NCBI GenBank assembly: GCA_030390025.1
Contig: CM059439.1
Span: 55,428,001 to 55,492,000, forward strand
Direction: 5' to 3'
Source: Squalus acanthias
Lineage: Eukaryota
DNA: 64,000 nucleotides
A program made the position numbers and the translations under genes. Below the pieces are notes generated by a model that was given only the letters and a program-made list of their open reading frames with translations, had not been told where the DNA came from and did no database searches. Shown one piece after another: positions 2,886 through 64,000 of the stretch. Numbering within the stretch: the first letter of the stretch is position 1; every line of letters starts with the position of its first letter.

Positions 2886-3378
2886 TAGCAAAATACTGCA
2901 GATGCTGCAAGTCTGAAATAAAATAGAAAATGCTGGAAATACTCAGCAGGTCAGGCAACATCTGTGGAGAGAGAAACAGAGTTAACCTTGCAGGTCGATG
3001 ACTTTTCATCAGAACTGGAAAAAGTTATAGATGTAATCGGGTTTAAGCAAGTACAGCGGCGGGGGAGGGGAGGAAAGAATAACGGGGAAGGTCTGTGATA
3101 GGATGGAAGGCAGGAGAGATTAAATGACAAAAGGGATGATGGTAATGGAACAAGTAAAGAAACAAAAGATGGGTCCAGAGGAGGTGTAAATGGGGGTAGC
3201 AGAATCATCAACAGCTGCTGTCTGTTAAAATGGGGGCAGAGGTTATGATTTGAAATTGTTGAACTCAATGTTGAGTCCGGAAGGCTGTAAAGTGCCTAAT
3301 CGAAAGATCCGTTCAGTCCGCAAGCGTGATCCCGAGCTTCTGGTCGCCAGTCACTTTAATTCTCTGACCTCTCTGTCT
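2886..3378 (-). mobile_element. Penelope-like element family A, 3' end with pseudo-LTR and short 5' inversion
   Basis: 2886-3307 is the reverse complement of the 61050-61507 end. 3308-3378 matches 60905-60990 in plus orientation. Degenerate hammerhead at about 2980-3017. Confidence 0.8.
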
Positions 3379-3666
3379 AAAGAGGGCTAAATTGGATAGC
3401 CCACGAAAATGGGCGCAGGGATCGCAAAGCACAATTACCCCACGCCCGTTTGATGTAATGCAGGCAGCAGATTAGCATGATTTCTGCGTGCAGCCAGCAC
3501 TAACCATGCTGTTGATTGGCTGCATGCATCAGCAGGGGCCCCAAAATCGATACTTGCAAACACTACTTAAAGCTAGCCTGCAACTCTTAAAGGGGAGGTG
3601 CATTCTGGCAAGAGCAGATGCTGGGAGTCCTGTGTGAGTTGAATCTGAACTGGGCAAAACAGAAGA

Positions 3667-6600: not shown

Positions 6601-7452
6601 CAGGTGCTTCAGCCAGGGCAGGGGGCAAGGATAGCGCAGGTTCCAGCTCGCCAGAGGGCAAGGTCGCACACAAGTTCTGCTGCAGAGGACTCAGATGAGG
6701 AATTTGATGGGCCAGGCTACAGAAGGCGGCTGATGGGTGTACACAACAAAATGCTTGGTGCATTGAGAAGCCTGCCTGAAAGCCTGTGTTCAATGTCAAG
6801 GAGTATGGAGGAGTTTGGCACCAACTTGGCACATTTTTGCGCAGAGCTTGGAGCCCATCCTTTCCAGCACGAAAGTGGTGGCCAACTCCATCAACACAGT
6901 TGTGGACCCAACCATGATGCAGCACTAGCAGCTTCCACCAAAAGTCTGAGTGCTGCTGTGGAAGCTGAGACTGCTGTCATGCAAGCTCAGACTGCTGCCA
7001 TCATGGCTGTGGATACCCGTGTTCAAAGGGGCTAGCAGGGTGTCACAACAATCCAGCAATCTGTCTACCAACAGATTACTAGGATTGCTGAGGCACCACC
7101 CCGGGGATTGTGGCAGTGGCTCCATGCAGCACGAGCCTACAGTCCTCTCTCAGGATGACAGCATTCATGCTCCCACCCCCTGCCACTCCGCCACTGCCCT
7201 TACTGTTGCCTATCAGCCAGCCAGCCCAGACTGCTGCCGCCCATGCCAACATGGTGCAGTCTGAAGCCAGGCCTTCTAGGCCCAGAACTGCTTGACGTCG
7301 TCCTCCAAGGCTGTCTGCAGTCTCCTGTACTGAAAGTCAGCAACCTTCCACCAGCCTATGCTTTAGCCAGTGGGGTTGCCCTACGTAGGAGCACTAGGAT
7401 AGGCAAAGGCACATGGAAGACAGGCACGAAGGGAATGCACAAATGTGATTAG
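3667..7452 (+). pseudogene. Harbinger Myb/SANT-like DNA-binding gene, three exons, decayed and LINE-interrupted
   Basis: ERAPRFSDTALEVLVEEMERRRDVLYP at 3667, then PRTWMQCWKKFDDLTRVVK to 5855. Splice-like junctions at 5855/5856, 6112/6113, 6272/6273 and 6424/6425. Internal stops and frameshifts. Confidence 0.7.
3838..5789 (-). mobile_element. 5'-truncated non-LTR retrotransposon (CR1/L2-group family B), RT region, nested in Harbinger
   Basis: RT motifs GVPQGSVLGP and FADD in ORF 4242-4967; further ORF2 pieces 4808-5771; A-rich 3' end at 3838; AGTTT repeated at both junctions; near-identical family copy at 35750-36660. Confidence 0.9.
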
Positions 7453-7543
7453 TTTAAGTTTGTATGTAATATGGCATGATTTCATTCATAAATTTGGTTT
7501 GAAATGTTAATTTTGTGTTGGTTTTTATTTTGTATTTTGGCCA

Positions 7544-10500: not shown

Positions 10501-11982
10501 TCTGCGCTATTAATTCATCTATTTTGTTGCGACTGCTTCGCGCATTCAGATATAGTGCCTTTAGCTTTGACTTATTTCTCTTTTCCCTTATGTCACCTTA
10601 GTCACTGATGCCATATTACCTTTGTTACTCTCTCTGTCCCTTCCTGACCCACTCTGCTTATTTTTACCCAAAACTCTACTCTGCTCTAGAGCCTTGACAT
10701 TTCTCTCGCTGCTTTTAAATTTACTCTTTCCTGAATTCTCCCACCCCACCTTCATTAGTTTAAAGCCCTGTCTACTGCTCTAGTTATTCGGTTCGCCAGG
10801 ACACTGGTCCCAGCCCGGTTTAAGTGGAGCCCGTTCCAACGGAACAGCTCCCTCTTTCCCCAGTACTGGTGCCAGTGCCCCATGAACTGAAATCCCTTCC
10901 TCCCACACCACTCTTTGAGCCACGCATTTAAACCTCTAATCTGTTTGTCCCTATGCCAATTTGCGCGTGGCTCAGGTAACAATCCAGAGATTATTACCTT
11001 TGAGCTTCTGCTTTTTAATTTGGATCCTAGCTCCTCAAACTCCCTCAGCAGAACCTCATTCCTAGTTCTACCTATGTCATTGGTTCCTACGTGGACCACG
11101 ACAACTGGATCCTCCCCCTCCCACTCCAAGTTCTTCTCCAGCCACGAGGAGATGTCTTTAATCCTGGCACCGGGCAGGCAACACAACCTTCGGAACTCTC
11201 GGTCGCGGCTGCAGAGAACAGTATCTATCCCCCTGACTATACTGTCCCCTACCACAACTACATTCCCTTTCACTTTCCCCACTTGAATGGCCTACTGCAC
11301 CATGGTGCCATGGTCAGCTTGCTCATCCATCCTGCAGGCATTTCCCTCATCCACACAGGCAGCAAGAACCTCATACCTGTTGGACAAGGGCAAAGGCTGA
11401 GGCTCCTCCAGCCATGCACCTGGGGTCCCCTTACCTGCCTGAGTTGCAGTCACACCCTCCTGTCCCTGACCACTAACCAGACCTTGTACCACTACGTAAC
11501 CTAAGGGATGTGACTGCCTCCTGGATCAAAGTGTCCAGGTAACTCTCCCCATCCCTGATGCCCTGCAATGTCTGCACCTCAGACTCCAGCTCAAAATCTC
11601 TGAGCTGAAGTTCCTCAAGCTGTGGGCACTTACTGCAAACGTGGTTGTCCGGGATCACAATGCTCTCCACAAACTCCCACATGCTGCAGTTGCGGCACAC
11701 CACCTGCACTGCCATCCTTATATGACCTTGTTTTATTTAATTAAATGTAATTAAATTTGTAATTAGGCAACTTAGTTTACAGTGTAGTTTCTTGACTACT
11801 TACTTGATCTAGATTAAGTTAAGGGTACTGAAATTAAATATCTACCTGTAACACAAAGCACTACAAGTAGTGTAGGCAAAAAGCAACAACTCCTTCCCCC
11901 TCTTCTCCGAATTCCCACTCTTTCCAAATTCCCAACTAAAACACTCTGTTAAAGTCCACTCTGTTTAATCCTGCTCTGTGCA
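7544..11982 (-). mobile_element. Essentially full-length CR1 LINE (ORF1 Zn-finger plus SGNH esterase; ORF2 APE-RT), frameshifted, nested in Harbinger
   Basis: ORF1 pieces CRNC...CSKC (11473-11715) and VVVGDSIVR...HVGTND...GLHLN (10755-11282). ORF2 pieces VYRPP, GVPQGSVLGP, FADD, RPHLEYCVQFWSP. (TAAGAACA)n tail at 7544-7565. GGCCA at both junctions (7539-7543, 11983-11987). Confidence 0.95.
8553..8697 (+). mobile_element. Short CR1 3'-end fragment inserted in opposite orientation inside the CR1 RT
   Basis: Matches 54368-54510; (TTTCTATG)n tail; GTTAC at 8548-8552 and 8698-8702. Confidence 0.9.
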
Positions 11983-12080
11983 GGCCAAGAGGACAATGTG
12001 ATGGTCAGTGACAGAGGGAGGGTAATGAGTGTGGTACTGTTGGTGAACGGGGAATTGGGGTTACTGGTATCACACTTGAA

Positions 12081-13200
12081 TTAGTTCTTCACGTACAGTC
12101 CAGGCAGAAAGGGGCTGTCTAGGTTGCCGCCTCCCTTCCTCTTCCGCCTCCTCCTCCACATCCTCCTCGTGCTCCTGCAGCTCAGCTTCTCACCTGATGA
12201 GTGGACAGCCCATGCACCACCTATTATGACAAGGTTGTGCAACATGCAGTTTACCGCCACGAATCTTGATACCCGCTCAGTCAAGTACTGCAGGGCCGCT
12301 CCAGAGCGGGCCAGGCAGCGTTGTTTCACCACGCCAATGGTCTGCTCTATCACATTTCTTGTGGCAGCATGGATCTCATTGTATGCATACTATGCACGTG
12401 TGCGTGGGTTGCGAACCTGAGTCGTGGGCCATGTCATCAGCAGATAGCCCTTGTCGCCCAGTAGCCGCCCTTTGGTTTGCCGTGGTGGCTGAAATACAGC
12501 TGGCACAGCGGACTGCCACAGAATGAAGGCATCATGACTGCTGCCCGGATACTGGGCATTGACCTACATGATGCGCTGCCTATGATCACACACCATGCAC
12601 GTTGAGGGAGTGGAATCCCTTTCGGTTCCGGTACATGGCAGAGTTGACATGCAGCGCCTGCAAAGCAATGTGCGTGCAGTTAGTGGTACCTGCACCAGGG
12701 GAAAGCCTGTAAACCTTGCAAACCCTCCTGCTTACTCCCACTGCTTGTCTCTGGCAAGAGGGAATGAAATGAAGTTAGCTCTCTTTGAATAGAGAGCCTC
12801 AGTGACCTCCCTTAAGCAACATTGGACGGCAAACTGTGAACTGTTGCTAATATCTCCAGCACCAGCCTGGAAGGAGACGCGTAAAACTTAGAGCCACGGT
12901 CACCTTCACAACCACTGGCAATGCGGTCCTTGCCCTGCTCTGAAGTTGGAGTCGGGGCAGTGGCAGGTGGTAGATTTCAGTGAGGACCTCCTTACTGAAG
13001 TGCAGACATCTCAAACATTGTTCGCCACTGAGGTTCAGGTAGGAGAATTGCTCTTTGAACACCCTGGGTGATATGGCCTCCTGCTGAGAGCCCTTCTCCC
13101 CTTCCTCCTCCCTCTTCTAGCAGCTTGTCCTGCTCTGTGTGACCTCTGCTCATTCTCCCAGTCATGCTCTATTCCAAGAGGAAGGCCTACTAGTGAACAC
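12081..13200 (-). pseudogene. Harbinger DDE transposase (HARBI1-like), decayed
   Basis: Minus-strand motifs NRKGFHSLNV (about 12600-12627), YPGSSHDAFIL (about 12520-12552), GDKGY (about 12444-12458) and IEQTIGVVKQR...CMLHNL; multiple frameshifts. Confidence 0.9.
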
Positions 13201-13660
13201 ATGTCTGGGAGCAACTGGTTTGTGCAGCAGCCTTGAAGTCAGCAAAAAGTACTTCAGCACCTGCCACACCACTCCCTGTAGATTTTTGAAACTTGAAACA
13301 ACTATGGAAAGCACCAGAAATGTGTAGTATTGTAGCAACTGCCAGAGTAATCAACCAGCAACTAACCCGTAAGTAGTTGATGATTCCTTTGAACAGCGCT
13401 GGTGGGGGGGTACTTCCTGCTGCTTAAAGTGTGTTCAACTGTGCGAGGTTAAGAGAGGGCGTCAGCTGGAACGTTGAGCTCCAAAATGGCAGCGCTGGCG
13501 TCAAATCAGCGTTGCACACCGATTGACGCCATGATCTGCCTGCTCTGCATACTTCTGGCGGACGTTAACTGCGCGCTTTATGTCACGGATGCCATTTTCG
13601 AACCCTAAGGGCACTTGTAGTGCCCAAAAAATGGGCGCTACCGAGCACAATTTCTCACCC

Positions 13661-14607
13661 CTAGAAAAGGTAAGAGACCAGAGGAAGTGATCCAGGTGGA
13701 TCGTGAATTCCGAAGACAGGAGAAAGGGGGGAAGATCCCTGACCAAAGAAGTGGGCGCAGAGGCGAAGGCGATGGAAGAAGAGCTCAGCATCGTGCAGAG
13801 ATCAAAATTCATTGAGGTGGGGGGCATAAGAGGATGAAGCTGAGGCCTTTGCTGAGGACTGATCTTCGGATCAGAGTGGGGAAGGTCAGGAGGGGGGATA
13901 GTGAAAACACGGCAAGGGGTGAGATTGGAAGGAGGGATGGGATCAGAGAGTAAGAAGGATCCAGAGGGGCGTTGGTATCCAAGAGTTGTTGAAGCTTGCT
14001 GAAAGGAAGATAAAATGTTTTTTGTTAAAGCGTCGGATGAGGCGAAGGATGAAATGGAACTGAAGACCAGGACAACTCTGAGATAGTGAGTCGGTACTGC
14101 TGAAGAGAGAGTTCGAGAGCGTGCATGGGTGGCACATGGCGTTGAGCGTGGATCTCAGGAAGCGGCGAGAGCAGTGGTTCGAGAAATGCCGAATATCATG
14201 CAGATATCTATAATCATGGGTGAACCCGAAACATGAAGGGTGGAATTTCAGTTGGAATCCACGTGGAATAAGTCGGAGTTGGAGACAGTTGCTGAGGAAA
14301 GAGATATGGCTGTGAAAGCGAGTTTTAGTAGATACCTGGTCAAACACGAGAAGGGAAACAGAAAGCAATGAAGGTGAACAAGGTAAAAGAGACAAACGGA
14401 GATCCCGTCGGAGAGAAGAGCAGAACTTCTTCAAGGTGGGCATTCCTGGAAGAGAAGTGGCAGTGAATTAAGCACTAATACAAAAGCAAAATACTGCAGA
14501 TAATGGATATCTGAAATGAAAACAGAAACTGCTGGAAGTGCTCAGCAGGTCAGGCAGCATCTGTAGAGAGAAACAGAGGTAACATTTCAGGTCGATGACC
14601 TTTCATC
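13661..14607 (-). mobile_element. Penelope-like family A, 5' part: pseudo-LTR with tail followed by ORF N-terminus
   Basis: 14480-14607 matches the pLTR at 61380-61507. ORF 13943-14443 (SHISFLSNCLQLRLIPRGF) resembles a PLE N-terminal domain and starts just after the pLTR. Confidence 0.8.
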
Positions 14608-14609
14608 CA

Positions 14610-15230
14610 AGACCATGGAAACATCGTGCCAAGGAAGGCAAGTCATGTTGAGTCCATGGTACTGGAGTGTAGAAGCATTTGGTTGAAGAGAGGCAAAATG
14701 GTAATGCTTAACATGGTAGAACCAGATCTGACAAATAATCGCCTGGCCAGTCGTGCATTAGGTGCACTTAAGTTTGCAGCTCTCAAACTTAATGGAGTGA
14801 AGGTGAGGACTACATTAGGGCAAACAGCACGTACAGTGAATGATTTGATGGGAATGAGAGTGTTGAATTCAGAGTTCAGCATGTCAATAGTGGTAGAGGT
14901 GTCATGATGGGTGGAGGGCCAGAGAAGGGGTACCTGGCAGTTTCATAGATAATTAATAAGAGAACTGAGGAAAAAGTAATTTCTGGGGATGGATGGTGAG
15001 GTTAGGGGGTTGGGGAAAGTTAGGGAGATATGGGTGGCAAGGGAGACAAGGAAATGGCCACAGAATGTCTAGTTGGTGATCAAAACAGGGAATGAAGAGA
15101 TGTTGAGTTCAAGGGGATGGCCATGGGTATGGGTGGGAGAGTTTGTGTAGTGGGTGAGATTGAGTGAGGATAGATGAGTTGCAGATAAATGAGATTTCCT
15201 GACTTACTTTGTGAAATGGATCAACTAACA
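14610..15230 (-). mobile_element. Old L2-like LINE fragment (endonuclease and linker region)
   Basis: Minus strand encodes an NSPTHTHGHPLEL-like APE motif near 15100-15150; heavily decayed. Confidence 0.5.
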
Positions 15231-15879
15231 GCCCTCATCTCATAATCCAGAAACAGAGAGCCCTCTCACTTACATCCACCTGCAGCCCATTAGGCAGCTC
15301 CTGTTGACTGACATACAAAAGTTCCATTGCGAGAGTCTTGTGCAGGAATCAATTGTTGCTTCAGCCTCCACTCTTTCCACATTGAAGGCAATGATTGCAG
15401 AAATGGCCTGATCATTACAAGCTACTATACCAAACACTCCGTGTAAACATGATTAACAAAACATTTTTACGAGGTTAAAAGGTGTGTCAAAATGGCACAC
15501 AACACTGCAAGAGTATTGTGTTTGCAGAAAGTCAGGACAAGGGATCAATTTTAAGAGTTGCATGACCATTAAAAATAACACACCAATACTAACAGAAGGA
15601 AATGTCACTTAAAAGTTGCATGAACCCCAAAGTGAAATTATTAACATTTATCAAGGTATTGGAATTATAAACAAACTGTAATATAAATCAAGCAAATTTA
15701 TAATTTAGAGGCTATTTAAAATTGTTGCAATATTTATTTTAAAATATTTTTGTGCCCCAGTGGTATTATTACTGATGGATATCCAATGACAACAGTGCAA
15801 AGCATTCCGATCTCCGAAATTGGTCTTTAGTTTGTCTACATGTGCAACATTCAAAGAACATTTTAAAATAGGAGCATTG

Positions 15880-16295
15880 AGCAACTCTCAATATCTCAGT
15901 GGATAAACACACTATCCAATGTCAAGCTCCATTGTACAAAGCAGGAAGGTCCCAGGTTTGATCTATGGTCTGTGCTGAATTAGCTGATGTCAGCAGGAGT
16001 GGTAATGGGTCATTACAATTGGTCTTATTGCCCATGAATTAGGGAGGGAAACAGCAGTCAGGGTTTCTGCTCCTGACCACTATCCAGTAACCCCTGTTGG
16101 AAAGTATGCATATGTGCACATCAGGTGAGGACAGAATTAGCTTTGGTATTAAGGTCCCCCATAGTCAAATCGCCTTCCAACCCTCACTAGGTTTATACAT
16201 GAAATATAATCATTTGTGCAAGGTACTGGAGAGCTATTGGCAACTGTGGAATTGTACCCTGACATAAGTCAGCGTCTTCAGGAGAGGAAAATAAT
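15880..16295 (+). mobile_element. LF-SINE-like tRNA-derived SINE
   Basis: caggaaggtcccaggtttgatc...tgtgctgaattagctga...ctcctgaccactatccagt...cttcaggagagg; homologous to many copies in the window. Confidence 0.85.
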
Positions 16296-16669
16296 AAAAT
16301 GGAAGAAAACTGGAGAAAAAGGGAACCGTTGTAATTTTATATTTGTTGTTACAGCTCTTTTGATAGAAGACATCGTTTCACTAAGTTTCTCTCATCTTTC
16401 CTCACCTACTCATTAATCACTAGTTCATCCACTGCTTAGGAAAAGAAACCATGTGAGCCTCTCTAACTTCAGAGAACTGCAAAGTGATGACATAAACTTG
16501 GTGCACAGTGAGTGCAAGAACTAAACGCAACAGGAAGCAGCAAATAAGACAAGATTGCATTTTATCCAATGAAGCGGTACCTTTAAAATAAAACTAATTT
16601 TAATTGTAGTAGTTTAATTCATAGTTTGCTAAGTGCTACCAATTTGTGACTTTCCATCCCTCCACCTTG

Positions 16670-17030
16670 TTATTTTCTCACCTCAAAAATGCTGACTTAT
16701 GCTGGGGTAGGGTTTTTCTATGTAGGACAGGCTCCAGTACCTTGCAAAAGTGGCCATTCTTCATCATGTGAGTAATAGGGAGTGTTGGAAAGCTTTTGAC
16801 CGTGGGTTATGGAAGGAGCCAAAAGAGATGGGGGAAATCAGCCAAGCTTGATCCAACAAAGACACAATCCAACACGTCAATGATAGTGATCAGGAGTGGG
16901 GAGCCCTGACAGATTTTTGTCCTCTCCAGCTCAGACAGACTGTAGCCAATTATAGCATCCTTAATGCTGCACAGACCAGGAATTGAATCTGGGATCTTCT
17001 GGTGTATATGGCTCAGTATCCCACTGAACC
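16670..17030 (-). mobile_element. LF-SINE-like copy
   Basis: Reverse-complement match (agtggccattcttca, gatcaggagtgg, cacagaccagg). Confidence 0.7.
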
Positions 17031-17724
17031 ATCTAAAGAACATTATCAAATGATAATGAGAAAAATGTGTATGATCTCCCAATGTTCAGTTTATGTTGAA
17101 ATTAACTTCAAGTCAGAGCAAACCCTCAGCTGGTTGACAGAAACAAAATCAAAAGGAATTTATAGTTAGGGTCAAAAATAGTTGACCCTGACCCCAATCT
17201 CTCATTAAAGCTATTTCCATTTATAATGTTGCAGTCTACTTTGGTAAATGCAAGACCTGATGTAATTCTTCTTTATACAATTACATAAATCACTCACAAG
17301 AGCAGTTATTTGAGGACTGCTAAAGCACATCTGAAATGCTATTGATCTTATCTTTTGGATGAGAGATTCAATCTCATTCAGAAGTATAGCCAGGATTTCC
17401 AGGTGGAAGATTATTGTCCTGTTTTGTGATCATCATTGCAACGCCTGAACTATTTTCTCCAATTTTGCTGTAGCAGTGGTAATAATTTACCAGTCCTATT
17501 GACATTTTAGGTAAATTGGGGTCAGAGGGGAGCAAAATAGCAGTAATTGGTGCCTACATAACATTTTCTGATATTGGTACATGAACAGTTTCAAGATAAC
17601 TTCAGGGTGCCCTCAACACTGCTCTGCCAACTTAATTTGTTTAATATGCCTGAATAAATCAGTGGAGTCTTGTCATCAGTGATTCAACACTCCAGCTATG
17701 TGGGATAACAGCAACCAAGAAAGT

Positions 17725-18000
17725 GTTTTCTTTTCCCTTACCTCCTTTCCTGAAGGTGTTGACTCATCACTGGAATACAGTTCCACAGGTGCTGGCTGCC
17801 ATCTGGTACTTTGTTCAAGTATTGCTTATTCATGTGCGATCCTTTACAGCAAGTGTTGGCCGGCTATTTGATTGTAGAGGGCAACATAATTGTGTCCAGT
17901 CCTGTCCTCACTCGACATTTCCAGCAGACTCTGAGCAATGATCAAGGACTGGAACTTCGGCTAATTCCCCCCTCACTAACCCAGGTGTTAAGTGCCTGAA
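17725..18000 (-). mobile_element. LF-SINE-like copy (3' part)
   Basis: tcctgaaggtgttgactca...cctgtcctcac...tttccagcag. Confidence 0.7.
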
Positions 18001-39387: not shown

Positions 39388-39590
39388 CTTCGGTTTGTAT
39401 GCATTCAGCATGGACATTTCGACATTTTGCCCTCGCACAGGTTTCGGCTGTCGTTGGATAACGGGTGTTGATGACTTTTGATTATTACGACAAATACAGA
39501 TAAAGAAGAACAAAAGAGCAATTGCCAGGGGAATTGCCACACTAGGGACCAGGATGTAAAGAATCTCCATCTTGTTGTTTTCTTTGGAGT
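39388..39590 (-). CDS. ROR1: ROR1 exon 8: transmembrane and juxtamembrane
   Basis: ccag|AC...AAG|gtaaga, 203 nt, phase 1 to 0; DSKENNKMEILYILVPSVAIPLAIALLFFFICICRNNQK...EMSMLNAYKPK. Confidence 0.96.
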
Positions 39591-39998
39591 CTGGTTTGCA
39601 AAGAAAAAACATATCTTAGTGCCTTACTAATAAGACACAACACTGCATTCCGCAGTAAGAAAAAAGGAAGAAAGAACTTTCAGTTATGTAGCACTTTTCA
39701 TGACTTCTGGAAATCCCAATGGAGTACTTTTAAAGTGTAATTACTGTTGTAATTCAGGGAGATGGTGCAGCCAATTTGTGCACTGCAAGGTCCCACAAAC
39801 AGCAATCAGATAAATTGCCAGATAATCTGTTTTGGTGATGTTGGTTGAGGGGGGTAAATGTTGGCAAGGACACCAGGAGAACTTCCCTGCTTTTCTTCAA
39901 ATAGTGGTCATGATGCGGAGATGCCGGTGTTGGACTGGGGTGGACAAAAATGAGAAGTCGCACAACACCAGGTTATAGTCCAACAGTTTTATTTGAAA

Positions 39999-40036
39999 TC
40001 ACAAGCTTTCGGAGCTATCGCCCCTTCCTCAGGTGA
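39999..40036 (-). ncRNA. Minimal type I hammerhead ribozyme motif (ROR1-sense copy)
   Basis: Mirror of 40346-40383: TCAC-CTGAGGA-A-GGGGC(GATA)GCTCC-GAAA-GCTT-GTGA. Confidence 0.7.
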
Positions 40037-40345
40037 AGTAAAGAAATACAGAATCGACAAAGCATATATAGATAGAGAACAATGCATCTGTAACTTACAA
40101 TGGCAGACGACTACATTTAAATCATCCTGACTGTTTATCTGCCGAGGTGTGACAAAAGGCAATTTGTCTCAGTTGTATCTTGCTATGTCTTTGATGTGGT
40201 ACCTTCCTGGCTGACTTGATTGCCTTTTGTCACACCTCGGCAGATAAACAGTCAGGATGATTTAAATGTAGTCGTCTGCCATTGTAAGTTACAGATGCAT
40301 TGTTCTCTATCTATATATGCTTTGTCGATTCTGTATTTCTTTACT

Positions 40346-40383
40346 TCACCTGAGGAAGGGGCGATAGCTCCGAAAGCTTGTGA
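40346..40383 (+). ncRNA. Minimal type I hammerhead ribozyme motif
   Basis: Stem I TCAC/GTGA, core CUGAGGA...GAAA, 5-bp stem II with GAUA loop, palindromic AAGCTT helix III, CUU cleavage triplet. Confidence 0.7.
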
Positions 40384-40654
40384 TTTCAAATAAAACTGTT
40401 GGACTATAACCTGGTGTTGTGCGACTTCTCATTTTTTTCTTCAAATAGTGCCATGGGATCTTTTACGTCCACCTGTAAGGACAGCCAGGGCTGCAGTTTG
40501 TCTCATCCGAAAGACGGCACCTCCAACGGTCCAGCACTCCTTCAGTACAGTACTGAGGTCAGCCTAGTTTATGTGCTCAAGTCTCTGGATTGTGGCTTGA
40601 AACCCCAACCTTCTGACTCTGAGGTGAGAGTGCTACCACTGAGCCAAGGCTGAC

Positions 40655-41035
40655 ACATCAGTAACAAAGCACAACCAACATCAGTAATAAAACACAACAC
40701 TCCATCATACTTCAATAGTAAAACACAACATTCCTAAAGTACTTCAGCAAAAAAATACAACACTGCTCAGTACTTCAGTAGTAAAACACAGCACAGCACT
40801 CTTCAGTACTTCAGGAATAAAGCACAACACAAGTAATAAAATATACATGAACTGCAGGAATAAAGTATAATGCTTCTTAGTAATAAAACTATGATGAATT
40901 TCAGTAATGAAAGTACCGTACACCAATGTAACAAAATACAATACCCACTGTATAAAAACATCACACACCTCAATAATAAAGTTCAATGTACTCCGTCTTA
41001 AAGTACAATGCATCTCAATAAGAAAAGTACAACAT
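40655..41035. repeat. Degenerate minisatellite, 22-36-bp units
   Basis: About 14 diverged copies of (ac)ttcagtaataaaacacaacac. Confidence 0.7.
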
Positions 41036-41657
41036 ATTTTAGCTATAAAATTGTTATCTCTTTACACAGTGAAATAACTATTGGCATCAACAGTGACCTG
41101 AATTCAGTGGCAGTAAGATTATGGATATTGCTGCTCATCCAGTGAGACCCTTAACTTTAAAGGTTCACTTTCAGAAAAAGCTGAACAGGCGATCCTTCTC
41201 GCACCTCCACCTCTCTCTTTGTCAAATCTTTCTTGTCTGTCTCTATTTTATCAATACTTCTACAGTCACTGCTCCCCCAAACTTTCCTCTATTATTCCCC
41301 GTGAGCCTCAAAGATACTATCCTGCAGACTGTCGCTGCTCCTTGCATATTCCCTGCACCACCCCACACTCTGACTTGTGCTTTCTCAGAGCCCTCAAGGC
41401 TGTGGAACACCTAATCCTTCCTTGGCCTTTCCTTCTTTTATAATGTCCAGGTTTTGAAAGTCAAACTTAGCATCACCTGACCACTACTTGTTGATTTATC
41501 CCATCTTCTGCTCTTTGTAACCTTGTTACCGTCCTGAACTACGGATCCTGGCCCTCCCTGATGCTTCTCAATTTGAAAAAAAGGATAAAAGTACAGTGTA
41601 CTAACTCACTGCACTATATCCAGTTCCCCTTCAGAAATTTCAATTGATGGTCCTTAC

Positions 41658-41903
41658 CACACAGTGGAATTTCACACAACTCCAACTTGACTGATTCATC
41701 CAGAGTAAAGCACCACGGAGCATCCTTGTGGTTCCCTGGATTCCGGCAATATGAGTGGCCACCATTCAGTTCGGGATATTTAACCGCAGTGTAAGAATGA
41801 CTGTGTGGATACTGGGAGTTCCATGGCTGACACTGTCGCCCTGATTTGGTTACACTCACGGTGCCACGATAATCAATACCGCTAATATTAAAACATTTGT
41901 GAT
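41658..41903 (-). CDS. ROR1: ROR1 exon 7: kringle domain
   Basis: cacag|AT...TG|gtaagg, 246 nt; [33 protein letters not shown]...[19 protein letters not shown]. Confidence 0.97.
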
Positions 41904-44749: not shown

Positions 44750-45088
44750 CTCCAAGAAATGAGCACAGAATCTAAACTGATGGTTTAGTGCTGCCTTATC
44801 AGAGGTGTCATCTTTTGGATGAGATGTTAAACTGAGGTCCTGTCTGCCTGTTCAGGTGCATATTAAAGATCCAATGGCAGGGTGTTGGCCAACACCATCA
44901 AAAACAGATTAACTGGTCATTCATCTCATTACTGTTTATGAGATCTTGCTTTACACAGTTTGATTGCCGTGTTTGCTGAAATAATAATAGTAACCCCACT
45001 AGAAAAGTAACTTGTGTGAAGCATTTTGAGACAATTCTCAGAGACATGATAAAGCAATATATACGTGCAAGGTGGTTTTTCTTTCTTT
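44750..45088 (+). mobile_element. Deu-domain SINE inside a minus-strand LF-SINE (about 44590-45170)
   Basis: ggtgtcatcttttggatgagatgttaaac...caggtgcatattaaagatccaatggca; tail atatacgtgcaag..tttctttctt; LF-SINE halves on both sides. Confidence 0.7.
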
Positions 45089-47641: not shown

Positions 47642-47790
47642 TCTCCCGCGCTGCCCGTAGTCTCTTCAGATCCGCCATTTTACTGCGTGTCTCCCGCGCT
47701 GCTGGTAGTCTCTTCTGATCCGCCATTTTACTGTGTGTCTCCCGTGCTGCTGGTAGTCTCTTCCTAGCCACCATTTTTCTGTGTGTCTCT
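47642..47790 (+). repeat. Three 48-bp tandem repeats in the Tigger 5' region
   Basis: Units start at 47642, 47690 and 47738; each contains C(C/A)GCCATTTT or CACCATTTT. Confidence 0.9.
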
Positions 47791-47827
47791 CCATCTTTAT
47801 CGGGAATTATCTCCCCCATCTTGCATT

Positions 47828-49585
47828 ATGGAATTCCCAAAAGCTGGTCCAAGCAAAAGGAAGAGAGTGGTCTTAACTTTAAAACAGAAAATCGAGATAT
47901 GCCAACGACTAGAAAGGGGAGAGAAGCGTATCAACATTATGAATGAATTCAAAATCGGTTCGTCAACAATCTACGACATCAAATCGCAGAAGGATAAGCT
48001 GCTCAAGTTTTATTCAAGCTCGGAGACATCCAAGAGTGTAGAGAAACGGCGTACGCTTCGTAAGCCTAAGCTTGAAGAGCTGGATACCGTGCTTTATGAG
48101 TGGTTTTCTCTTAAGCGTTCAGAGGGTGTTCCACTTTCCGGACCCATGTTAATCGAGAAAGTGAAGGATTTCTACGAAAGGATGGAGCTCACTGACAAGT
48201 GTGCTTTCTCTGAGGGATGGCTAACGTGCTTCAAGTCACGGCAGAGATACGACGACTCGATATTTCCGGGGAGAAGAAATCAGCTGATCACGACGCCGCA
48301 GAAGAATACTGCGATTATTTCAATCAGATTGTGCAGCAACATGATTTGTCGCCAGCAGAGATATATAATGCCGATGAAACTGGCTTGTTTTGGAGGTTTT
48401 TGCCAGAATCAACGCTTGCTGGGGCTAGTGAGGCTAATGCTTCAGGTTACAAGAAAAATAAAGATCGTGTAACCGTGCTAACATGTGCGAACGCTGCTGG
48501 ATCACACCGGGTTAAACTTCTTGTTAGCGGGAAGTATAAAAATCCCTGTGCATTTAAAAATGTGAGGCACTTACCTGTTGGGTACAAAGATCAAAAAAAA
48601 TGCTTGGATGGATAAGGAAATCTTCTCCTATTGGTTCCATCATATTTTTGTTCCATCTGTGAGGGAACATTTCCGTAAAATAGGGAAACCTGAAGATAGC
48701 AAATGCATTTTATTGCTTGATAATTGTAGAGCCCATCCGCATGAATCCGAGTTGGTTTCGGGAAATATTTTCACCATTTATTTGCCACCAAATGTAACTT
48801 CTCTCATACAACCCATGGACCAGGACGTTATCCAAAATCTGAAGTGTCATTACAAGAAAGACTTCCTACGTAAACTGATAAACCAAGATGACAATATTCA
48901 CGCATTTCAGAAGGAATACAGTATTAAAGATGCCATCTATAATGTTGCATGTTCCTGGAACTTGGTGAAAGGTCACACTCTGAGGCAAGCCTGGCGCAAA
49001 TTGTGGCCTTCTGTAATGTTTGCTGAAGGTTCTTCTTCAGAGGAGGAATTTCATGGGTTCAATGTTCGTCCCAAGAAGAGTACAATAATGGAAATGGCTG
49101 GTATGGTGAAAAATGTAGGCCCAGCAAACCCTCTACGTCACCTCAGTGAAAGTGATATCGAGCAGTGGGTTGATACAGATAGAGAAGTTGGTGTTGTGCA
49201 TATGCTGAGTGATGATGAAATAATTGAGAGTGTTTTGAATCCAAAGAAAGAAAAGGAAAGTGAGATGGAAAGTGAAGAGGATGAGATTTCTGAAGAGAAC
49301 AAGATTTCTTGGGCTAAAGCTGCTGAAGGATTTTCTTCAATCCTCCAATTTGCTGAAAGACAGCCTTGCTACTCTGCCCAAGAAATTATGCAACTCCATA
49401 TTCTGCATTCCACGTTTCTACAGAAAAGGCAAGAGTCCACTAAGCAAGCTGACATCCGGGACATGTTTAAGAAAGCTTCCAAAAGAGTCGAAGCAGTGGA
49501 AGTGCCTGAAAAATCTGTGGAAGTGCATGATCCTGATGACCCAGCTGGCATGGATATTCCTGATGAACCAGTTGACTTGGAATAA
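47828..49585 (+). pseudogene. Tigger/Jerky-like transposase (HTH-psq, CENP-B HTH, DDE_1) with two single-base indels
   Basis: [50 protein letters not shown] (DD32D); shifts at about 48243 and in the A8 run at 48593-48600; reconstructs to about 585 aa. Confidence 0.92.
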
Positions 49586-51085: not shown

Positions 51086-51402
51086 AACGGTTGCGACGAG
51101 GACCAAATCACTCCCCCTTGGTGTTTCAACCCATATGTCAGCTTGTCAATGTCTCACAAGAAAAATGAACATTTTGCCACTGGGATTGGAGATTGTCAGT
51201 ATTGGCAAATTAGATTGGTTGGAAAACAGAACTAAAGATTGTTAGAAGTAATCAGATTGGTTGGTGATTGGGATGGAACCTGTAAGGACCATTCAGATGT
51301 TACTTTCTTGCACTGTTGGTTGTGCATGAACTTAAGGCAGAAAGATTTTAAGATGACTTGATGGTTTCTGAGAGTTGCAGTTACAATTATGTTTATTTCG
51401 TA

Positions 51403-51500
51403 TAAAAACAGAAAATGCTAGAAATACTCAGCAGGTCAGGCAGCATCTGTGGAGAGAGAAACAGAGTTAACGTTTCAGGTCGATGACCTTTCGTCAGAAC
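51403..51500 (-). mobile_element. Solo Penelope family A pseudo-LTR fragment
   Basis: Reverse complement of 61373-61470; begins at the hammerhead stem I. Confidence 0.85.
51466..51500 (-). ncRNA. Minimal hammerhead ribozyme motif, consensus-intact
   Basis: GTT-CTGACGA-A-AGGTC(ATC)GACCT-GAAA-CGTT-AAC; palindromic AACGTT helix III; GUU triplet. Confidence 0.75.
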
Positions 51501-56075: not shown

Positions 56076-56780
56076 AAGATCAGAAAATGCTGCAAACACT
56101 TAGCAGGTACTTTGCAGCTCTCTGACATTATTATTTACTTTAACAACTTCAGACCATAACTATAGCTCCCATTTTCTCTCTGGCAGGAAGCGCTGACAAT
56201 GTGAGATGGTTATGCTGGAATTTCAGGGGATGGGAGCAAGGAGTGTGTTGGTGCTTGGGGTGGGGACTCTGTCAGAACACTGTGCTGGTCAGGCGGTTTG
56301 CACCCTCAGTGTTGACCTGCTTTTTTCTTCTACCAGGCTCCTGGGACACTGGAAACTGTTCAGCTTTGCCAGTTTTTCATGTTTCCCTTTCCACCTACCG
56401 AAACCCCACCTCTTTAGCCATTCAGAAAAATCCTGTGTCTCAATATGTCCTTTATTTCTTTGATTTCTCTCATATGCCTCCTATTGTCTCCGACTAACAT
56501 CACTTCTGCCTTTTAACCATCTCCTCTTCTCTATTTAAGCAATTTACGAGTCATTCTATTTCTTTTCCTGTGTGGGTGCTTTTGTTTCTTTCTTTTCCTT
56601 CCTTCTTGTTCTGTTTCTTTTTAAATATTGCTCCTCTGTAATATCTTCTAGATTTGATGAAGAGTCCATACCTGAAACATCTTGTTTGCTTTCTCCACAG
56701 ATGCAGCCAGACCGGTTGAGTATTTCCAGCATTTTCTGTTTGTTTCAGATTTCCAGCACCTACAGTATTTTGCCTTTTGT
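56076..56780 (+). mobile_element. Older Penelope family A-related 3' fragment with inverted 5' pLTR piece
   Basis: cagaaaatgctgcaaacacttagcagg at the 5' side; degenerate hammerhead/pLTR at 56650-56780. Confidence 0.6.
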
Positions 56781-57292
56781 TCTAGGGTGTTCCTTGTTGG
56801 TTTGGCTTTGTATTTACCCACTGAGCCATCAGGGGAGCTGATCAATTTGCATTTTCATGACGCTAAACTTGCGCTTCATTGTTTTCCACTGTCCGATTAG
56901 ATTTTACTTTTGGCGGCATCTTTTAAAACCGCAGACATGCCAAAGTGCAATACACTGGAGGCCACGTGCATTGTGCCATGGAATGGTAAGAAGTGGTTTT
57001 GTATCCACACAAGGTGAGTTCCTGAGCGCAGCAGTACTACTGTGGGAAGATGTGGGACTTCCCAACAGGAAGGAAGAGAAAACTGGAAGGACGGAATCAG
57101 CCCCAGGCCACTCTTGCATTGCTCCTAGTGGATGGTTTTGCTATAGTAATGGCAGAGGCCAAGGAGCAAACGGTCTGCCTATTGTTTAGATCAGAAACAA
57201 TAAGCAGAGCAGGGGCATTCAAAAAGGGAGAAAGGGAGAAAACACACACTCTCAAAAATAAATAAAAAGCATTACAGTGCTGTGAAAAAGGA

Positions 57293-58455
57293 GGAACGCG
57301 ATGGACACCTACGGACACTGAAAGACGCCCTCGTAAGAACGGGATATGACGCTCGACTCGTCGATCGACAGTTCCGACGGGCCACAGCGAAAAACCGCAT
57401 AAACCTCCTCAGAAGGCGAACACGGGACACAACCAACAGAGTACCCTACGTCGTCCAGTACTTCCCCGGAGCGGAGAAACTACGCCATGTTCTTCGCAGC
57501 CTTCAACATGTCATCGATGACGACGAACACCTTGCTAAGGCCATCCCCACGCCTCCACTACTCGCCTTCAAGCAGCCGCCTAACATCAAAAGTACCATCG
57601 TTCGCAGCAAATTACCCAGCTGTCAGGAGAACAGCGACCACGACACCACACAACCCTGCCACGGCAACCTCTGCAAGACATGCCAGATCATCAACACAGA
57701 TACCATCATCACACGTGAGGACACTACCCACCAGGTACATGGTACATACTCATGTGACTCGGCCAACGTTGTCTACCTGATACGTTGCAGGAAAGGATGC
57801 CCCAGAGCATGGTACATCGGCGAGACCATGCAGACACTGAGACAACGTATGAACGGACACCGCGCAACAATCGCCAGGCAGGATGGTTGCCTCCCAGTCG
57901 GGGAACACTTCAGCAGTCAAGGGCATTCAGCCTCGGATCTGCGGGTTAGCGTTCTCCAAGGCGGCCTTCGAGACACACGACAACGCAAAATCATCGAGCA
58001 GAAACTGATAGCCAAGTTCCGCACTCATGAGGATGGCCTCAATAGGGATATCGGGTTCATGTCACGCTACAGAACGTGACTTGACATCGTTGTCTGTCTT
58101 TCCAGTTTTTAAAAAACACAAAAAAACAAACCCAAAAAACAAGGAGAGAAAGGAAGGGATATGGAGAGGATATGCAGACAGCAGGATTTGACACGTTGGA
58201 CCCCCTGGGACACATCTCATTGTCTTGGCTGTGCTCTTGGTGTGTCTTTGATGTAAGGAAAGATTGTATCTCTGCATTTTCTGTGTTTATATTCTGTGAA
58301 CTTTTGTAGATTCACTCATTGTAACTTTACCTGAAGAAGGGGCGATCGATAGCTCCGAAAACTTGTAATTTTAAATAAAACTGTTGGACTATAACCTGGT
58401 GTTGTGCGACTCCTCATTTTTGTCCACCCCAGTCCAACACCGGCATCTCCGCATC
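57293..58455 (+). mobile_element. Young 5'-truncated Penelope-like element family B (RT thumb, Cys linker, GIY-YIG, pLTR)
   Basis: Open frame to 58079 with PCHGNLCKTC and NVVYLIRC...WYIGET...QRMNGH; CpG-rich; GTGAAAAAGGA duplicated at 57282-57292 and 58456-58466. Confidence 0.92.
58327..58368 (+). ncRNA. Minimal hammerhead ribozyme motif in the Penelope B pLTR
   Basis: TTAC-CTGAAGA-A-GGGGC(GATCGATA)GCTCC-GAAA-ACTT-GTAA. Confidence 0.6.
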
Positions 58456-58784
58456 GTGAAAAAGGAAGGCATAGCAACTGATTGCTGGCATTGACACAGG
58501 CTTCTCTTTCAGGGCACACAGTCTGATATCATATGGATAAGTCTTCACAAAATTAAGCAAATACTCCATGCAACACAATGACTCAATTATGTTTGGACTG
58601 TCTGTGGAAAGCAACCAAACCAGGGCTGAATAATGGAGGTAGAAGCACAGATAAATATTCAGAAGTTTTCCACAACTATTTTTGGAGTACTAGGAGAGAT
58701 TAATTGTACACAGTCTGTAGAAGGAGGGGCCTTTTCCTCATTGCATGGTTTCTTATGTTTTTTTAAATTATATTTCTCCTCAAT

Positions 58785-59165: not shown

Positions 59166-59352
59166 AGTACAGTCATTTACTAAAGAAATGTATAATTCTA
59201 TCAAAAAATACAGATGCCCGACAGCATAGATTCTTCGAGAGTCAAAACGCCCGGAGATTGAGAGATTGTGGGTTTTAACTAGAACCCAAATCAAGGACTC
59301 TGTAAATGTTTACACTGGATTGCATCGGTAACTTAACAGGTACTAATTCACA

Positions 59353-61507
59353 GAAAATGCTGGAAATACTCAGCAGGTCAGGCAGCATCTGTAGAGAGAG
59401 AAACTCTCCTACCTCCCTCTGGACCATGACCCCCACGACCGAACATCAAGCCATCGTTTCCAAGACTGTCACTGACTTCATCTCCCTCTGGAGATCTTCC
59501 CTCCACGGCCGCCAACCTCATAGGTCCCCAACCCCACACAGCCCGCTTCTACCTCCTTCCCAAGATCCACAAACAGGACTGCCAGGGTAGACCCATCGTT
59601 TCAGCCTGTTCTTGCCCCACGGAACTTATCTCTTCCTATCTCGACTCTATTTTTTCTCCCCTTGTCCAGTCTCTTCCCACCTACATCCACGACTCTTCCG
59701 GCGTCCTCCGCCACTTTAACAGTTTCCAGGCCCCAACCGTCTCCTTTTCACTATGGACGTCCAATCCCTCTACATCTTCATCCCCCACCAGGATGGCCTG
59801 AGGGCACTCTGCTTCTTCCTTGAACAGAGACCCAACCAGTCCCCATCCACCAGCACCCTCCTCCGCCTGGCTGAACTTGTTCTCATGTTGAATAACTTCT
59901 TATTTGACTCCACTCACTTCCTCCAAATTAAAGGTGTTGCTATGGGAACCCGCATGGGTCCTAGCTATGCCTACCTTTTCGTGGGATATATGGAACATTC
60001 TTTGTTCCAGTCCTACTCAGGTCCTCTCCCTCTCCTCTTTTTCTAGTACATTGATGAGGGTATTGGTGCCGTTTCCTGCTCTCGCCCTGAACTAGAAAAC
60101 TTCATTCACTTTGCTTTCAACTTCCACCCTTCCCTCACCTTCACATGGTCCATCTCCGACTCTTCCCTTCCCTTCCTCGACTTCTCTGTCTCCATCTCTG
60201 GGGATAGACGATTAACAAACATTCCATATAAGCCCACTGACTCCCACAGCTACCTGGACTACATTTCCTCCCACCTCGCTTCCTGTAAGGACTCTATTCC
60301 ATTCTCCCAGTTTCTCCGTCTCTGCCGTATCTGCTCTGATGATGCCACCTTCCATACTAGTGCTTCCGACATGTCTTCCTTTTTCCTCAACTGAGGATTC
60401 CCCTCTACCGTGGTTGATACGGCCCTGTTCTATTTGCCGTACTTTTGCTCTCACCCCTTCCCCTCACTCCCAGAACCACAATAGGGTTCCCCTTGTCCTC
60501 ACCTTTCACCCCACCAGCCTCCACATTCAACGGATCATCCTCTGCCATTTCCGCCACCTCCAGCGTAATCCCACCACCAAACACATCTTCCCCTCACCTC
60601 CCCTTTCAGCATTCCGAAGGGACCGCTCCCTCCACGACACCCTGGTCCACTCCTCTATCACCCCCAACACCCCTTCCCCTTCGCCTTCGCCCGGCACCTT
60701 CCCGTGCAAGCGCAGGAGATGCAACACATGCCCTTTTACCTCCTCCCTTCCCACTGTCCAGGGCCTCAAACACTCCTTCCAGGTGAAACAGCAATTTACT
60801 TGTACTTCTTGCAATTTAGTATACTGTATTCGCTGCTCACGATGTGGTCTCCTTTACATTGGGGAGACCAAACGCAGATTGGGTGACCGCTTTGCGTAAC
60901 ACCTCCGTTCAGTCCGTAAGGTTGACCCCAAGTTTCCGGTCGCCTGTCACTTTAATTCTCCGCTCCACTCCCACTCTGATCTCTCCATCCTCGGCCTCTT
61001 ACACTGTACCAACGAAGCTCAACGTAAGCTCGAGGAACAGCACCTCATCTTTCGATTAAGCACTTTATAGCCTTCTGGACTCAACATTGAGTTCAACAAT
61101 TTCAGACCATAATCTCTGCCCCTATCATTTTTTTTCTCTCTCTCTCTCGCATGGCAGCTGCCATTACCATTTACACTTCATCTAAAGTCATCTTTTGTTT
61201 CTTAACTTGTCCCATTACCATCTCCTTTTGCCTCGCACCATCATCCCTTTTGTCTCTTAATCTCTCCTGCCTTCCATCCTATCACAGACCTTCCCTTTTG
61301 TTCTTTCCTCCTCTCCCCCCTTCCCTGCCCCTACACGTGCTTAAAAACCTGTTACATCTCCAATTTTTTCCAGTTCTGACGAAGGATCATTGACCTGAAA
61401 TGTTAACTCTGTTTCTCTCTCTACAGATACTGCCCAACCTGCTGAGTATTTCCAGCATTTTCTGTTTTTATTTCAGATTTCCAGCATCCGCAGTATTTTG
61501 CTTTTGT
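59353..61507 (+). mobile_element. Penelope-like element family A: RT plus GIY-YIG (decayed), 3' pLTR, inverted partial pLTR at 5' end
   Basis: FYLLPKIHK, MDVQSLY, GVAMGTRMGPSYA, YIDE, PCKRRRCNTC, LVYCIRCSRCGLLYIGETKR; inverted pLTR 59353-59404; 15-bp TSD AGGTACTAATTCACA at 59338-59352 and 61508-61522. Confidence 0.95.
61373..61407 (+). ncRNA. Hammerhead ribozyme motif, slightly decayed
   Basis: GTT-CTGACGA-AGGATCATTGACCT-GAAA-TGTT-AAC. Confidence 0.55.
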
Positions 61508-64000
61508 AGGTACTAATTCACATTTGTTCTGAATCTTTAGCTATCCCAAATTAAAACATACAATGAGAGACAGTGAACTGTCTCATATCAAACAATATCA
61601 ATATTGTAGTACACACATGCATGGTCTGCCTGAATGGAATGAGTCCAGTTCTGTGGCAACGAACCCACTGAATCCTAATTTGGCTGGTCAGTTATTTTTG
61701 AGTCACATTCTATACTACATTACTTTGGAGAGTGGGCATGTGGGACAGTAGCAACCTTTTTTTTTACTGTATATTAAATAAATTAATAGCATAGAGGCAT
61801 TTGGATACATCCAAGGTTAATGATGAAGAACTGTTAATATCATCCATCCAAATAGGCCTGAAGCATCGGTCAGGATTAAGCATAGAGTGCCAGGTTGAGA
61901 AACTTGAAATACCTGTTGCAAGAAGGCTGGAGATTGGAGCCAGGGAATCTGAAGTAGGCATAGAGGTAAAACTGCAAAATGCATTAAAATGGTTTGGACC
62001 CACAGCAAGCCATTATTCAAGGATGGTCCAGGAAACAGTGAAGGGACGAGACTTGCTCAAGTACATAGTAAGTAAGGATTGAGTAAAAGCCATCAATCCT
62101 GCTCCTTCCATAGACCATGTGCAATCTACTCTAACCTAGGGGATGGTTAGAATCAATAGTCCCTGATCAACAAAGGTAATGTGTGTCTTTCAAAACAGAA
62201 TATATTTGATTCTTTTTTTCCAGTGATATATTTAGCCCAGATCTAAGAGCCCAGTGTTCTCGATTATAATCTCATTAATTGGAATGTACCAGAGAATCGC
62301 CAAGAATAGAGTCCTTTGATGCATCAGCTGCACAAATGTATTTCAACAAAGCCTGTAGCTCGTCTATCATCAGTGGAAACTGCTGAAAAATTTCAGCCAG
62401 CCTCCTGAGAATTAGGGTCAAAGATTTCAATTCTTTATAAACTTCTGGTTATCAGAAGCTCCAATGAATTATACACAGTGTATTAAAAAGTCCTTTTTAA
62501 TCCCTTTTAAAGCGTGGTTGATTTTACAAAGTTGGTCTGAATATTTGCATTTCTATTAACTAATTAACGACCATGTCGCTATTAAAAATTCAAGGTTTAG
62601 TTACAAAACCACCACACGGTAAATGTACTCTTCCCAATTTGTAGTGCAATAAAAATTTATATTTAATATTAATATTGTACAATATGAAGAGGGTGTTACC
62701 TGAATCCCAAAGACATGCATATTCCTAGTCTAACCTATTTTGCAATCTGCCAAAAACAATCAGGAATTTGTCCCTTGCCACGGTGCCAAATCTCAACCTA
62801 CTGCTGACTGCTGATTGAGCAAACAACTACAAGCTAGAAGTCTGTATATGGTTGGCAGGATGCCCTCAATCTGTTATCCTCAACATAAACAGATCCTGAA
62901 ACTCTCACTCAACAAGGCTGAAGTAGGCACAAAGCAGTGTGACTCAATACTAACGTATGCAAGCACAACATTAATTTCAGCTCTTAGAAGATGGTACAAT
63001 GTCTTTCGTCCGCTCCTTCTCTTCGCAAAGATATAAAAATACACTGCATGGTGATTCTCTCTATCCTACTGCAGCTAACTTCAACTGTTTTAAATTATGA
63101 ACCATTTTTGCAGTAGGGCCTTTTTGAATTAATCAACACAAGTACAAGGCCAAGGCTCATGGTAGAGAACACCACTAAGTTTGAAAAGAGTGGGCTACAA
63201 CATTAGATAAATAGTGGTGGTTAGGTTACATTAAACTTGAGTTTTAAAAACCTGCAGATTTAGGAAGAAGGAAAGCCTGAGGGAGATAAAGAGCTCCATA
63301 GTTTTTCAGAAGCTGGGAAAGAACAAGTTAAGAGTATGAGACAGTCCAACGAGTCTTAATTTCAATACAAATGATAAATAAGTTTCAAATATAAAGTCCT
63401 GAAGCTACTGTTTCAGCTAATCATGACTGCAAGAAACACAGGGGTTGAAATGTTCTCTTTTCCTTGATGCTGCCAGTATTCTTGGTGGAAAGTTGGCTGT
63501 ATTACTCTGCCTTGGCACAAAGTAGTGATTTTCTTCCCCTCTAGTTTGGGCACAAAGAACGTCAGTGGTATTCTGTGAAGATCATTCATCACACAGATGT
63601 AAAGCTTTAAGGGAAATGGATACAGTATGGCTTGCAGGTCTAATGTTTCAGGCTTATTTGTGACAAAGAAAAGTTTACATAATGGCTGATTCTGTGGCTC
63701 TCAAAATACTGCTTCCCCACAAAGGAACAAAACTTGAGTCCCAGCTGGTATTTCAGCAAAATGGATTACTTGGCTGAAGCAGCGAGTTTGGATACTGACC
63801 GAGTATAGAGCCATCGAGAGTACAAGCTGAGGAATTACCTGTACAGAATATCAGGCACTATCAGGGCTGGAGAGCAGTGAGCCAGCAAACAGTGTTCTCC
63901 TGTAAGTAAAGAGTTCAATTGAAATGAAGCCCAAGACTTACCCTTAATCATTCCACGAAATAGTACTAACATTTTTAAAATTGTGTTGCAATGATGGGAT

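Follow-up and report, generated by a model that had tools for sequence, protein, structure and literature searches.

How an exactly self-complementary hairpin of 218 bp came to lie in an intron of shark ROR1, and whether it is of any consequence to that gene, are the questions raised by the locus described here, which was analysed within a 64-kb window (the whole 64,000-nucleotide stretch of DNA). The host gene was identified from its kinase exon, encoded on the minus strand, which scores 630 bits against ROR1 (6tu9) as opposed to 453 bits against ROR2 (4gt4). The exon upstream of the insert is that of the kringle, and the exon downstream reads as the transmembrane segment. The intron between them extends from 41657 to 39592 (2066 nt) with in-frame GT/AG ends, and the insertion adds 544 nt to it. 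The labels intron 7 and exon 8 are ones that we assume from human exon numbering. A previous sequence-only reading of this DNA had placed the insert within a SINE of the ROR1 intron, approximately 355 nt ahead of the transmembrane-exon acceptor, and both statements are confirmed, in that SINE sequence flanks the insert on both sides and the acceptor AG (39593-39592) lies 355 nt from the nearer arm and 315 nt from the edge of the insert. The features of the host locus are as follows.

39388..39591, minus strand: ROR1 transmembrane exon, downstream of the insert.
41658..41898, minus strand: ROR1 kringle exon, upstream of the insert; the upstream limit is approximate.
39660..40655, minus strand: host SINE, split by the insertion; limits are approximate, with a tRNA-type head near 40655.

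The host repeat, which we take to be a member of the Deu SINE family, bears a tRNA-type A box (40646, minus strand) but lacks an intact B box, and both of the flanks match one further copy, at 44802-44957, at 74-78%. Adjoining the SINE head, between 40655 and 41000, is a degenerate tandem array of A/C-rich units of ∼20-30 nt, in which several plus-strand AATAAA hexamers are present.

Positions 39946-40163 and 40219-40436 form an exact inverted repeat of 218 bp without a single mismatch, the two arms being separated by a spacer of 55 nt (40164-40218). Outward of the arms the first pair is mismatched, and inward the first 11 positions are mismatched; the repeat finder lengthened the inverted repeat to 221 nt by passing one mismatch. 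By comparison, the next-longest perfect inverted repeat in the 64-kb window, with spacers of up to 2 kb, is 15 bp, and the longest perfect inverted repeats in ten base-shuffled control windows were of 12-15 bp. The insert is bounded by a 16-bp direct repeat (target-site duplication, TSD; 39891-39906 and 40435-40450), the two copies of which are 100% identical and the right-hand copy of which shares 2 nt with the right arm. The inverted-repeat search, together with position-by-position pairing, therefore bears out the hairpin as originally described, with its exact 218-bp arms, 55-nt loop and 16-bp TSD. A tail was also correctly assigned to one arm, being present outside the left arm only (39907-39945), although its length is 39 nt rather than the ∼36 nt claimed, or up to 43 nt if the overlap with the TSD is counted, which fits the 30-40-bp one-ended tail of endonuclease-bearing (EN+) Penelope-like elements (PLEs). 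Similarly, each arm does contain a hammerhead, with cores that start at 40350 on the plus strand and 40032 on the minus strand, but being on opposite strands these provide only one sense copy per transcript. The AATAAA at 39993-39988 is the sole AATAAA or ATTAAA on the minus strand of 39600-41640. The insert comprises 3' UTR and tail only, and is devoid of the ORF by which an autonomous PLE is recognised. Its component parts are listed below.

39891..39906, unstranded: left TSD copy; the last 4 nt (39903-39906) are probably also a continuation of the element, according to a depth-bin fit.
39907..39945, minus strand: PLE tail of 39 nt, present on arm A only; the same tail ends an ORF-bearing sibling copy.
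39946..40163, minus strand: arm A, 218 nt of PLE 3' end (pLTR), tail-bearing and in the sense orientation with respect to ROR1.
39988..39993, minus strand: AATAAA hexamer, ROR1-sense and within the duplex.
39999..40036, minus strand: minimal type I hammerhead, the sense copy in ROR1 pre-mRNA (features as given in the accessible text of PMC4209133).
40164..40218, plus strand: spacer of 55 nt, the upstream continuation of arm B, with a head-to-head junction between 40163 and 40164.
40219..40436, plus strand: arm B, the inverted tail-less copy, ending in the T-run directly before the tail.
40346..40383, plus strand: second hammerhead copy, antisense in ROR1 pre-mRNA.
40435..40450, unstranded: right TSD copy, with a 2-nt overlap with arm B.

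Inverted structures of PLEs are noted, in the accessible part of PMC8557442, to trouble assemblies, and the hairpin could feasibly be an artefact, either a fold-back chimera or the result of polishing that equalised two slightly different arms. A chimeric read, however, would not give rise to a clean 16-bp TSD, a one-sided tail, ends coinciding with the two boundaries of the tail and flanks of SINE on either side; polishing could still have erased one or two mismatches between the arms. Overall, an artefactual origin is considered very unlikely.

The identity of the insert was addressed by comparison with a second copy of the element located elsewhere in the window.

57282..58468, plus strand: sibling PLE copy (reference), with a 5'-truncated ORF that has a GIY-YIG-type end, a 3' UTR, a hammerhead, a tail and a 13-bp TSD.

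The last 133 nt of the insert are 92% identical to the sequence behind the truncated ORF of this sibling, which is ∼1.16 kb in length, 5'-truncated, bounded by a 13-bp TSD with one mismatch, and has no inverted arm. Pfam returned no match to the sibling ORF. A search with this ORF among longer proteins identified 16 relatives from 1196 candidates, nine of which contain PF00078 (reverse transcriptase), the best being a shark protein with 91% identity. A CX4CxxC linker precedes the GIY-YIG-type core of the sibling ORF, the core having been read by eye, and the linker is found also in the relatives. According to the accessible text of PMC8557442, a CX2-5CxxC motif upstream of GIY-YIG marks PLEs of the Neptune/Nematis type. 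The insert thus appears to be composed of 3'-end pieces of a Neptune-type PLE, with the caveat that the motif alone does not separate Neptune from Nematis. Of the characters of EN+ PLEs, the insert displays a terminal repeat tied to an ORF with RT and GIY-YIG, a one-ended tail, and an inverted truncated copy within a TSD.

The hammerhead in each arm has the core boxes, an extra base between positions 9 and 10.1, the G10.1-C11.1 pair and a palindromic remnant of helix III, which is the set of features that defines minimal PLE hammerheads in the available portion of PMC4209133. Because folding of the hammerhead in isolation is no more favourable than that of shuffled sequences (z -1.0), its identification rests on these motif features. 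Rfam yielded no hammerhead match at the insert and nothing at gathering score in the 64-kb window. A miRNA or hairpin-RNA locus was set aside as a candidate identity for the hairpin, the seven Rfam miRNA matches all being far below the gathering score and driven by pairing alone. In the sibling, loop II of the hammerhead is longer by an insertion of 4 nt and the palindrome of helix III is broken; the end of the tail likewise runs into similar target letters.

Other mobile elements were observed in the window. A second PLE family is represented at 60216-61508 (plus strand), 2883-3364, 14479-14621, 51402-51500, 56640-56780 and 59350-59404, and has its own hammerhead-like core at 61376 (plus strand) and 51497 (minus strand). 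In the copy at 2883-3364 a short reversed segment abuts at 3308, whereas 59350-59404 is an inverted 55-nt end situated 2 kb from the end at 61411-61465. Between 47420 and 49890 on the plus strand, pieces of a transposase-like ORF (47768-48469, 48214-48612 and 48566-49582) are enclosed by inverted ends of 28 nt (at 47422 and 49890), in what is presumably a DNA transposon of the pogo/Tigger type. Finally, a repeat fragment at 7547-8700, which we take to be CR1-like, has 91-nt inverted ends that are 85% identical and 972 nt apart.

The age and abundance of the family were gauged from sequencing runs. A word search returned five of the 24 runs listed with at least half of the words (0.72-0.73), these being from two samples of one organism (organism A), and contig depth was used as a rough guide to copy number; runs X1 and X4 were from one sample, and run X3 was read to 55%. 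Contigs of organism A that match the family exactly have depths of ∼2,300-18,000, as against ∼9-31 for contigs of the flanks, a contrast equivalent to roughly hundreds of identical copies. Across 39951-40218, four positions vary in at least 5% of depth in these runs. Because the window departs from the majority letter at just one position (40088) in this interval, the insert is judged to be a near-consensus copy of a young, multi-copy subfamily. Its near-consensus sequence and its anatomy both support the earlier proposal of a recent, ORF-less, 5'-truncated PLE insertion that carries an inverted, tail-less copy.

The rare base is common to both arms, at 40088 and at its partner, 40294. The other letter at 40088 accounts for 789,083 of 789,182 depth in X1 (99.99%) and 597,355 of 598,635 in X3 (99.8%), leaving the rare base with at most 0.013% and 0.2% of depth, respectively. 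These values bear upon the idea, raised in the sequence-only reading, of a non-autonomous fold-back derivative, in which a parent locus would have given rise to the hairpin by being copied whole. Such a parent would account for the identical arms and for the rare base that they share, and sequence other than that of the element can be moved in trans by PLE ends (PMC3846280, accessible text). Conversely, so scarce a base leaves little room for many copies of the unit, no second 40163/40164 junction is present within the 64-kb window, and the asymmetry of the ends is that of PLE insertions in general. It seems quite improbable that the hairpin was mobilised as such.

Among the 24 contig pieces listed at 99% from X1, X3 and X4 (there being 16,503 further), none bridges the 40163/40164 junction or covers 40088, contigs being apt to drop rare variants, and none bridges the left junction with 31 letters per side, which cannot show absence. 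No strand-change joint appears among the 15 of 103 contig joints listed. In organisms C and D there was no contig cover at 90% over 40041-40218, which is not evidence of absence. Contigs from X1 and X4 (depth 82-91) at 39911-39942 have part of the tail repeated, with 15 other letters between, and represent a tail-duplication variant of the family. In addition, a 34-nt contig from X4 (39894-39927) joins 13 nt of the TSD to the tail at a depth of 111, compared with 10-13 for single-locus pieces. This contig hints at several loci with the same SINE-to-tail junction, whether by a hotspot, duplication or a chimeric donor. Its length is insufficient for it to be scored as a bridge, and some 4 nt out of the 13 could belong to the element.

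Next, the question of which arm owns the spacer was considered. When aligned to the 3' UTR of the sibling, the score obtained with the plus strand of the spacer was equalled in 2 of 2000 shuffles, whereas that obtained with the minus strand was equalled in 1298 of 2000. Loose ends before 40164 continue into common upstream sequence in 19 contigs from X1 and 13 from X3, and the consensus of these loose ends resembles the upstream 3' UTR of the sibling. Since the plus strand aligns to the sibling and contigs run on before 40164, the spacer is a continuation of the tail-less arm B, which places the junction between 40163 and 40164. The pieces joined are then of 257 nt (tail and arm A) and 273 nt (spacer and arm B), and by eye the junction shows no homology on either side, or no more than 2 nt if a slip of one base is allowed.

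Given this position of the spacer, a cDNA primed in the target at the tail-less end and then folding back would be unable to supply the tail. The other route considered is a simple fold-back of the first-strand cDNA, whereby the tailed cDNA ran through the arm and spacer, turned and copied itself. Identical arms and a shared rare base would be expected of this route, but it needs the spacer to be on the tailed arm, and it was rejected on the grounds that the spacer continues the arm without the tail; unless the spacer was re-inverted at some later point, we give it almost no credence.

The explanation that we favour, and consider somewhat more likely than not, is that the insert is an ORF-less head-to-head PLE pair, that it likely arose in one recent event with reverse transcription primed separately from each of the two DNA ends, and that it is likely inert. 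In this scheme the endonuclease would nick both strands, ∼12-16 nt apart. The 3' end of the top strand, with a match of ∼4 nt to the RNA, would start at the distal boundary of the tail, giving a cDNA of ∼257 nt, and the 3' end of the bottom strand, with a 2-nt match to the U-run, would start at the proximal boundary of the tail, giving a cDNA of ∼273 nt. The RNA of one donor would serve for both cDNAs, which would then be joined bluntly head to head, with no clear microhomology, and then filled in. The hairpin itself would be a by-product of the similar lengths of the two cDNAs.

Several observations bear upon this scheme. The outer junctions of the insert coincide with both boundaries of the tail, and in vitro these boundaries are the two start sites of reverse transcription, at least in the accessible text of PMC11167929, where the PLE protein is also described as cleaving and extending both strands and as a predicted dimer. 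On the tail side, the primer and the RNA probably have a match of 4 nt. For family words starting at 39903, a uniform-abundance model predicts a depth-bin ratio of 0.0256, and the ratios observed were 0.0256 in X1 and 0.0240 in X4; the fit fails in X3 (0.289, with 55% of the run read), and hence holds in two of three runs, both from one sample. The bottom-strand primer has a 2-nt overlap with the T-run. Given that the start sites are reported not to be homologous to the cut DNA (PMC11167929, same part), the overlaps of 4 and 2 nt may be incidental. Counting against priming from both ends is the rare base, the presence of which in both arms needs an origin in the donor RNA or later conversion from arm to arm. 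Moreover, the steps are inferred from one copy, which cannot establish a mechanism.

The shared base is explained directly by self-priming, in which an antisense strand comprising tail, arm and spacer folds back and is extended, and the endonuclease resolves the product such that one end keeps the tail. Self-priming on an antisense template has been proposed for head-to-head repeats, and the tail has been attributed to endonuclease-mediated resolution (PMC3846280 and PMC8557442, respectively, in their accessible parts); this route also tolerates a spacer on the tail-less arm. The proposal was, however, built on junction palindromes, as opposed to the unpaired 55-nt spacer seen here, which offers no homology to prime on, and the short pairing predicted at the ends of the spacer would yield junction letters other than those observed. 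Furthermore, the enzyme in vitro uses the cut target DNA as its primer, and does so on both strands (PMC11167929, accessible text). Self-priming, the main alternative, is accordingly regarded as unlikely.

Priming from both ends could conceivably be the rule as opposed to an exception. In that event PLEs would integrate by obligate two-ended priming, with both ends choosing between two fixed start sites on one donor RNA with the help of 2-4 nt of pairing; sites that complement both would be hotspots, the host SINE position being one, with ∼10 hits in the species, and each event would plant a long dsRNA in an intron. This generalisation is offered tentatively and is doubtful. Among open papers, no statement of two-ended priming for PLE inverted repeats was found; within the same open-paper coverage, no study of these shark elements was found by title, and no structural study of a PLE was found.

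With respect to ROR1, the entire insert is predicted to fold into one duplex (-416.8 kcal/mol, z -45.6), and the predicted pair probability of hammerhead stem II falls from 0.97-0.98 in the tailed arm alone to at most 1e-16 in the full duplex. Long duplexes are plausibly edited or diced, and ADAR editing of such a duplex would be expected. The arms are predicted to pair in ROR1 pre-mRNA, which would hide both the sole sense hammerhead and the AATAAA. The hexamer is indeed paired in the predicted fold, as had been suggested for the sense AATAAA at 39988-39993. The accompanying suggestion that the duplex masks its own ribozyme holds in so far as stem II is predicted to be lost, but there is one sense hammerhead only and masking it changes little. 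Minimal PLE hammerheads are reported to be inactive as monomers, and little activity would thus be forfeited: a single minimal PLE hammerhead showed no cleavage as a monomer (PMC4209133), and the Anolis hammerhead needed protein (PMC11167929), according to the accessible text of each.

Whether the hairpin takes part in regulating ROR1, by way of transmembrane-exon splicing, polyadenylation within the intron, editing or small RNAs, can be judged from its position and history. A predicted duplex of 218 bp that lies 315-355 nt from the acceptor, in an insertion that contributes 544 nt to an intron of 2066 nt, could feasibly exert some influence. Nevertheless, the splice sites are untouched, closure of the hairpin would bring the effective intron towards its length prior to insertion, and the near identity of the insert to a multi-copy family gives no sign of conservation or selection. 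A regulatory role is thus deemed highly improbable, and the insertion is most likely an inert passenger in ROR1.

When set against known systems, the head-to-head layout, one-sided tail and opposite-strand hammerheads are all already in print, and the object is ordinary for its class. In L1 twin priming, the two ends left by a staggered cut each serve as a primer on the RNA, giving an inversion within one TSD. Two-ended priming and an inversion inside a single TSD would be shared with the present insert; the L1 cDNAs, however, cover different parts of the RNA, whereas here both cover the same 218 nt. Among PLEs, an inverted 5'-truncated copy with a one-sided tail of 30-40 bp and a TSD is described in the accessible parts of PMC8557442, PMC3846280 (Pen2a_Av) and PMC2377424 (Drosophila Penelope). 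The present insert resembles these EN+ PLE insertions in its head-to-head copy, tail on one end, TSD and hammerhead in the repeat, but there is no ORF or body between the repeats, the pieces are shorter than 300 nt such that a near-complete hairpin results, and the junction is marked by a spacer as opposed to a palindrome. Pairs of opposite-strand minimal hammerheads, 100-700 bp apart, are described in Schistosoma mansoni (PMC4209133, accessible text). The hammerheads here are likewise on opposite strands, ∼320 bp apart and in a truncated PLE, the difference being that they belong to a shark family of the Neptune type, with junctions and tail resolved. Poseidon_Ac in vitro (PMC11167929) is alike in having two start sites that bound the tail and in the cutting and extension of both strands; it is of another clade, and in the accessible part of that paper no head-to-head product is reconstructed and no homology between primer and start site is reported. 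Non-LTR retrozymes (bioRxiv 10.64898/2026.07.22.740005, accessible part) are also ORF-less and PLE-derived, with a type I hammerhead, but are organised as direct tandem units with hammerheads on the same strand. The insert, as one inverted pair, was rejected as a retrozyme on that basis. The origin of PLE inverted repeats and of the one-sided tail is described as unresolved in the accessible text of PMC8557442 and PMC11167929. The copy in ROR1 provides a useful test case, in that it is young, its spacer is long and not palindromic, its junction is blunt and its two arms share a rare base, and in ruling out a simple cDNA fold-back it constitutes a modest mechanistic data point for comparison with these systems.
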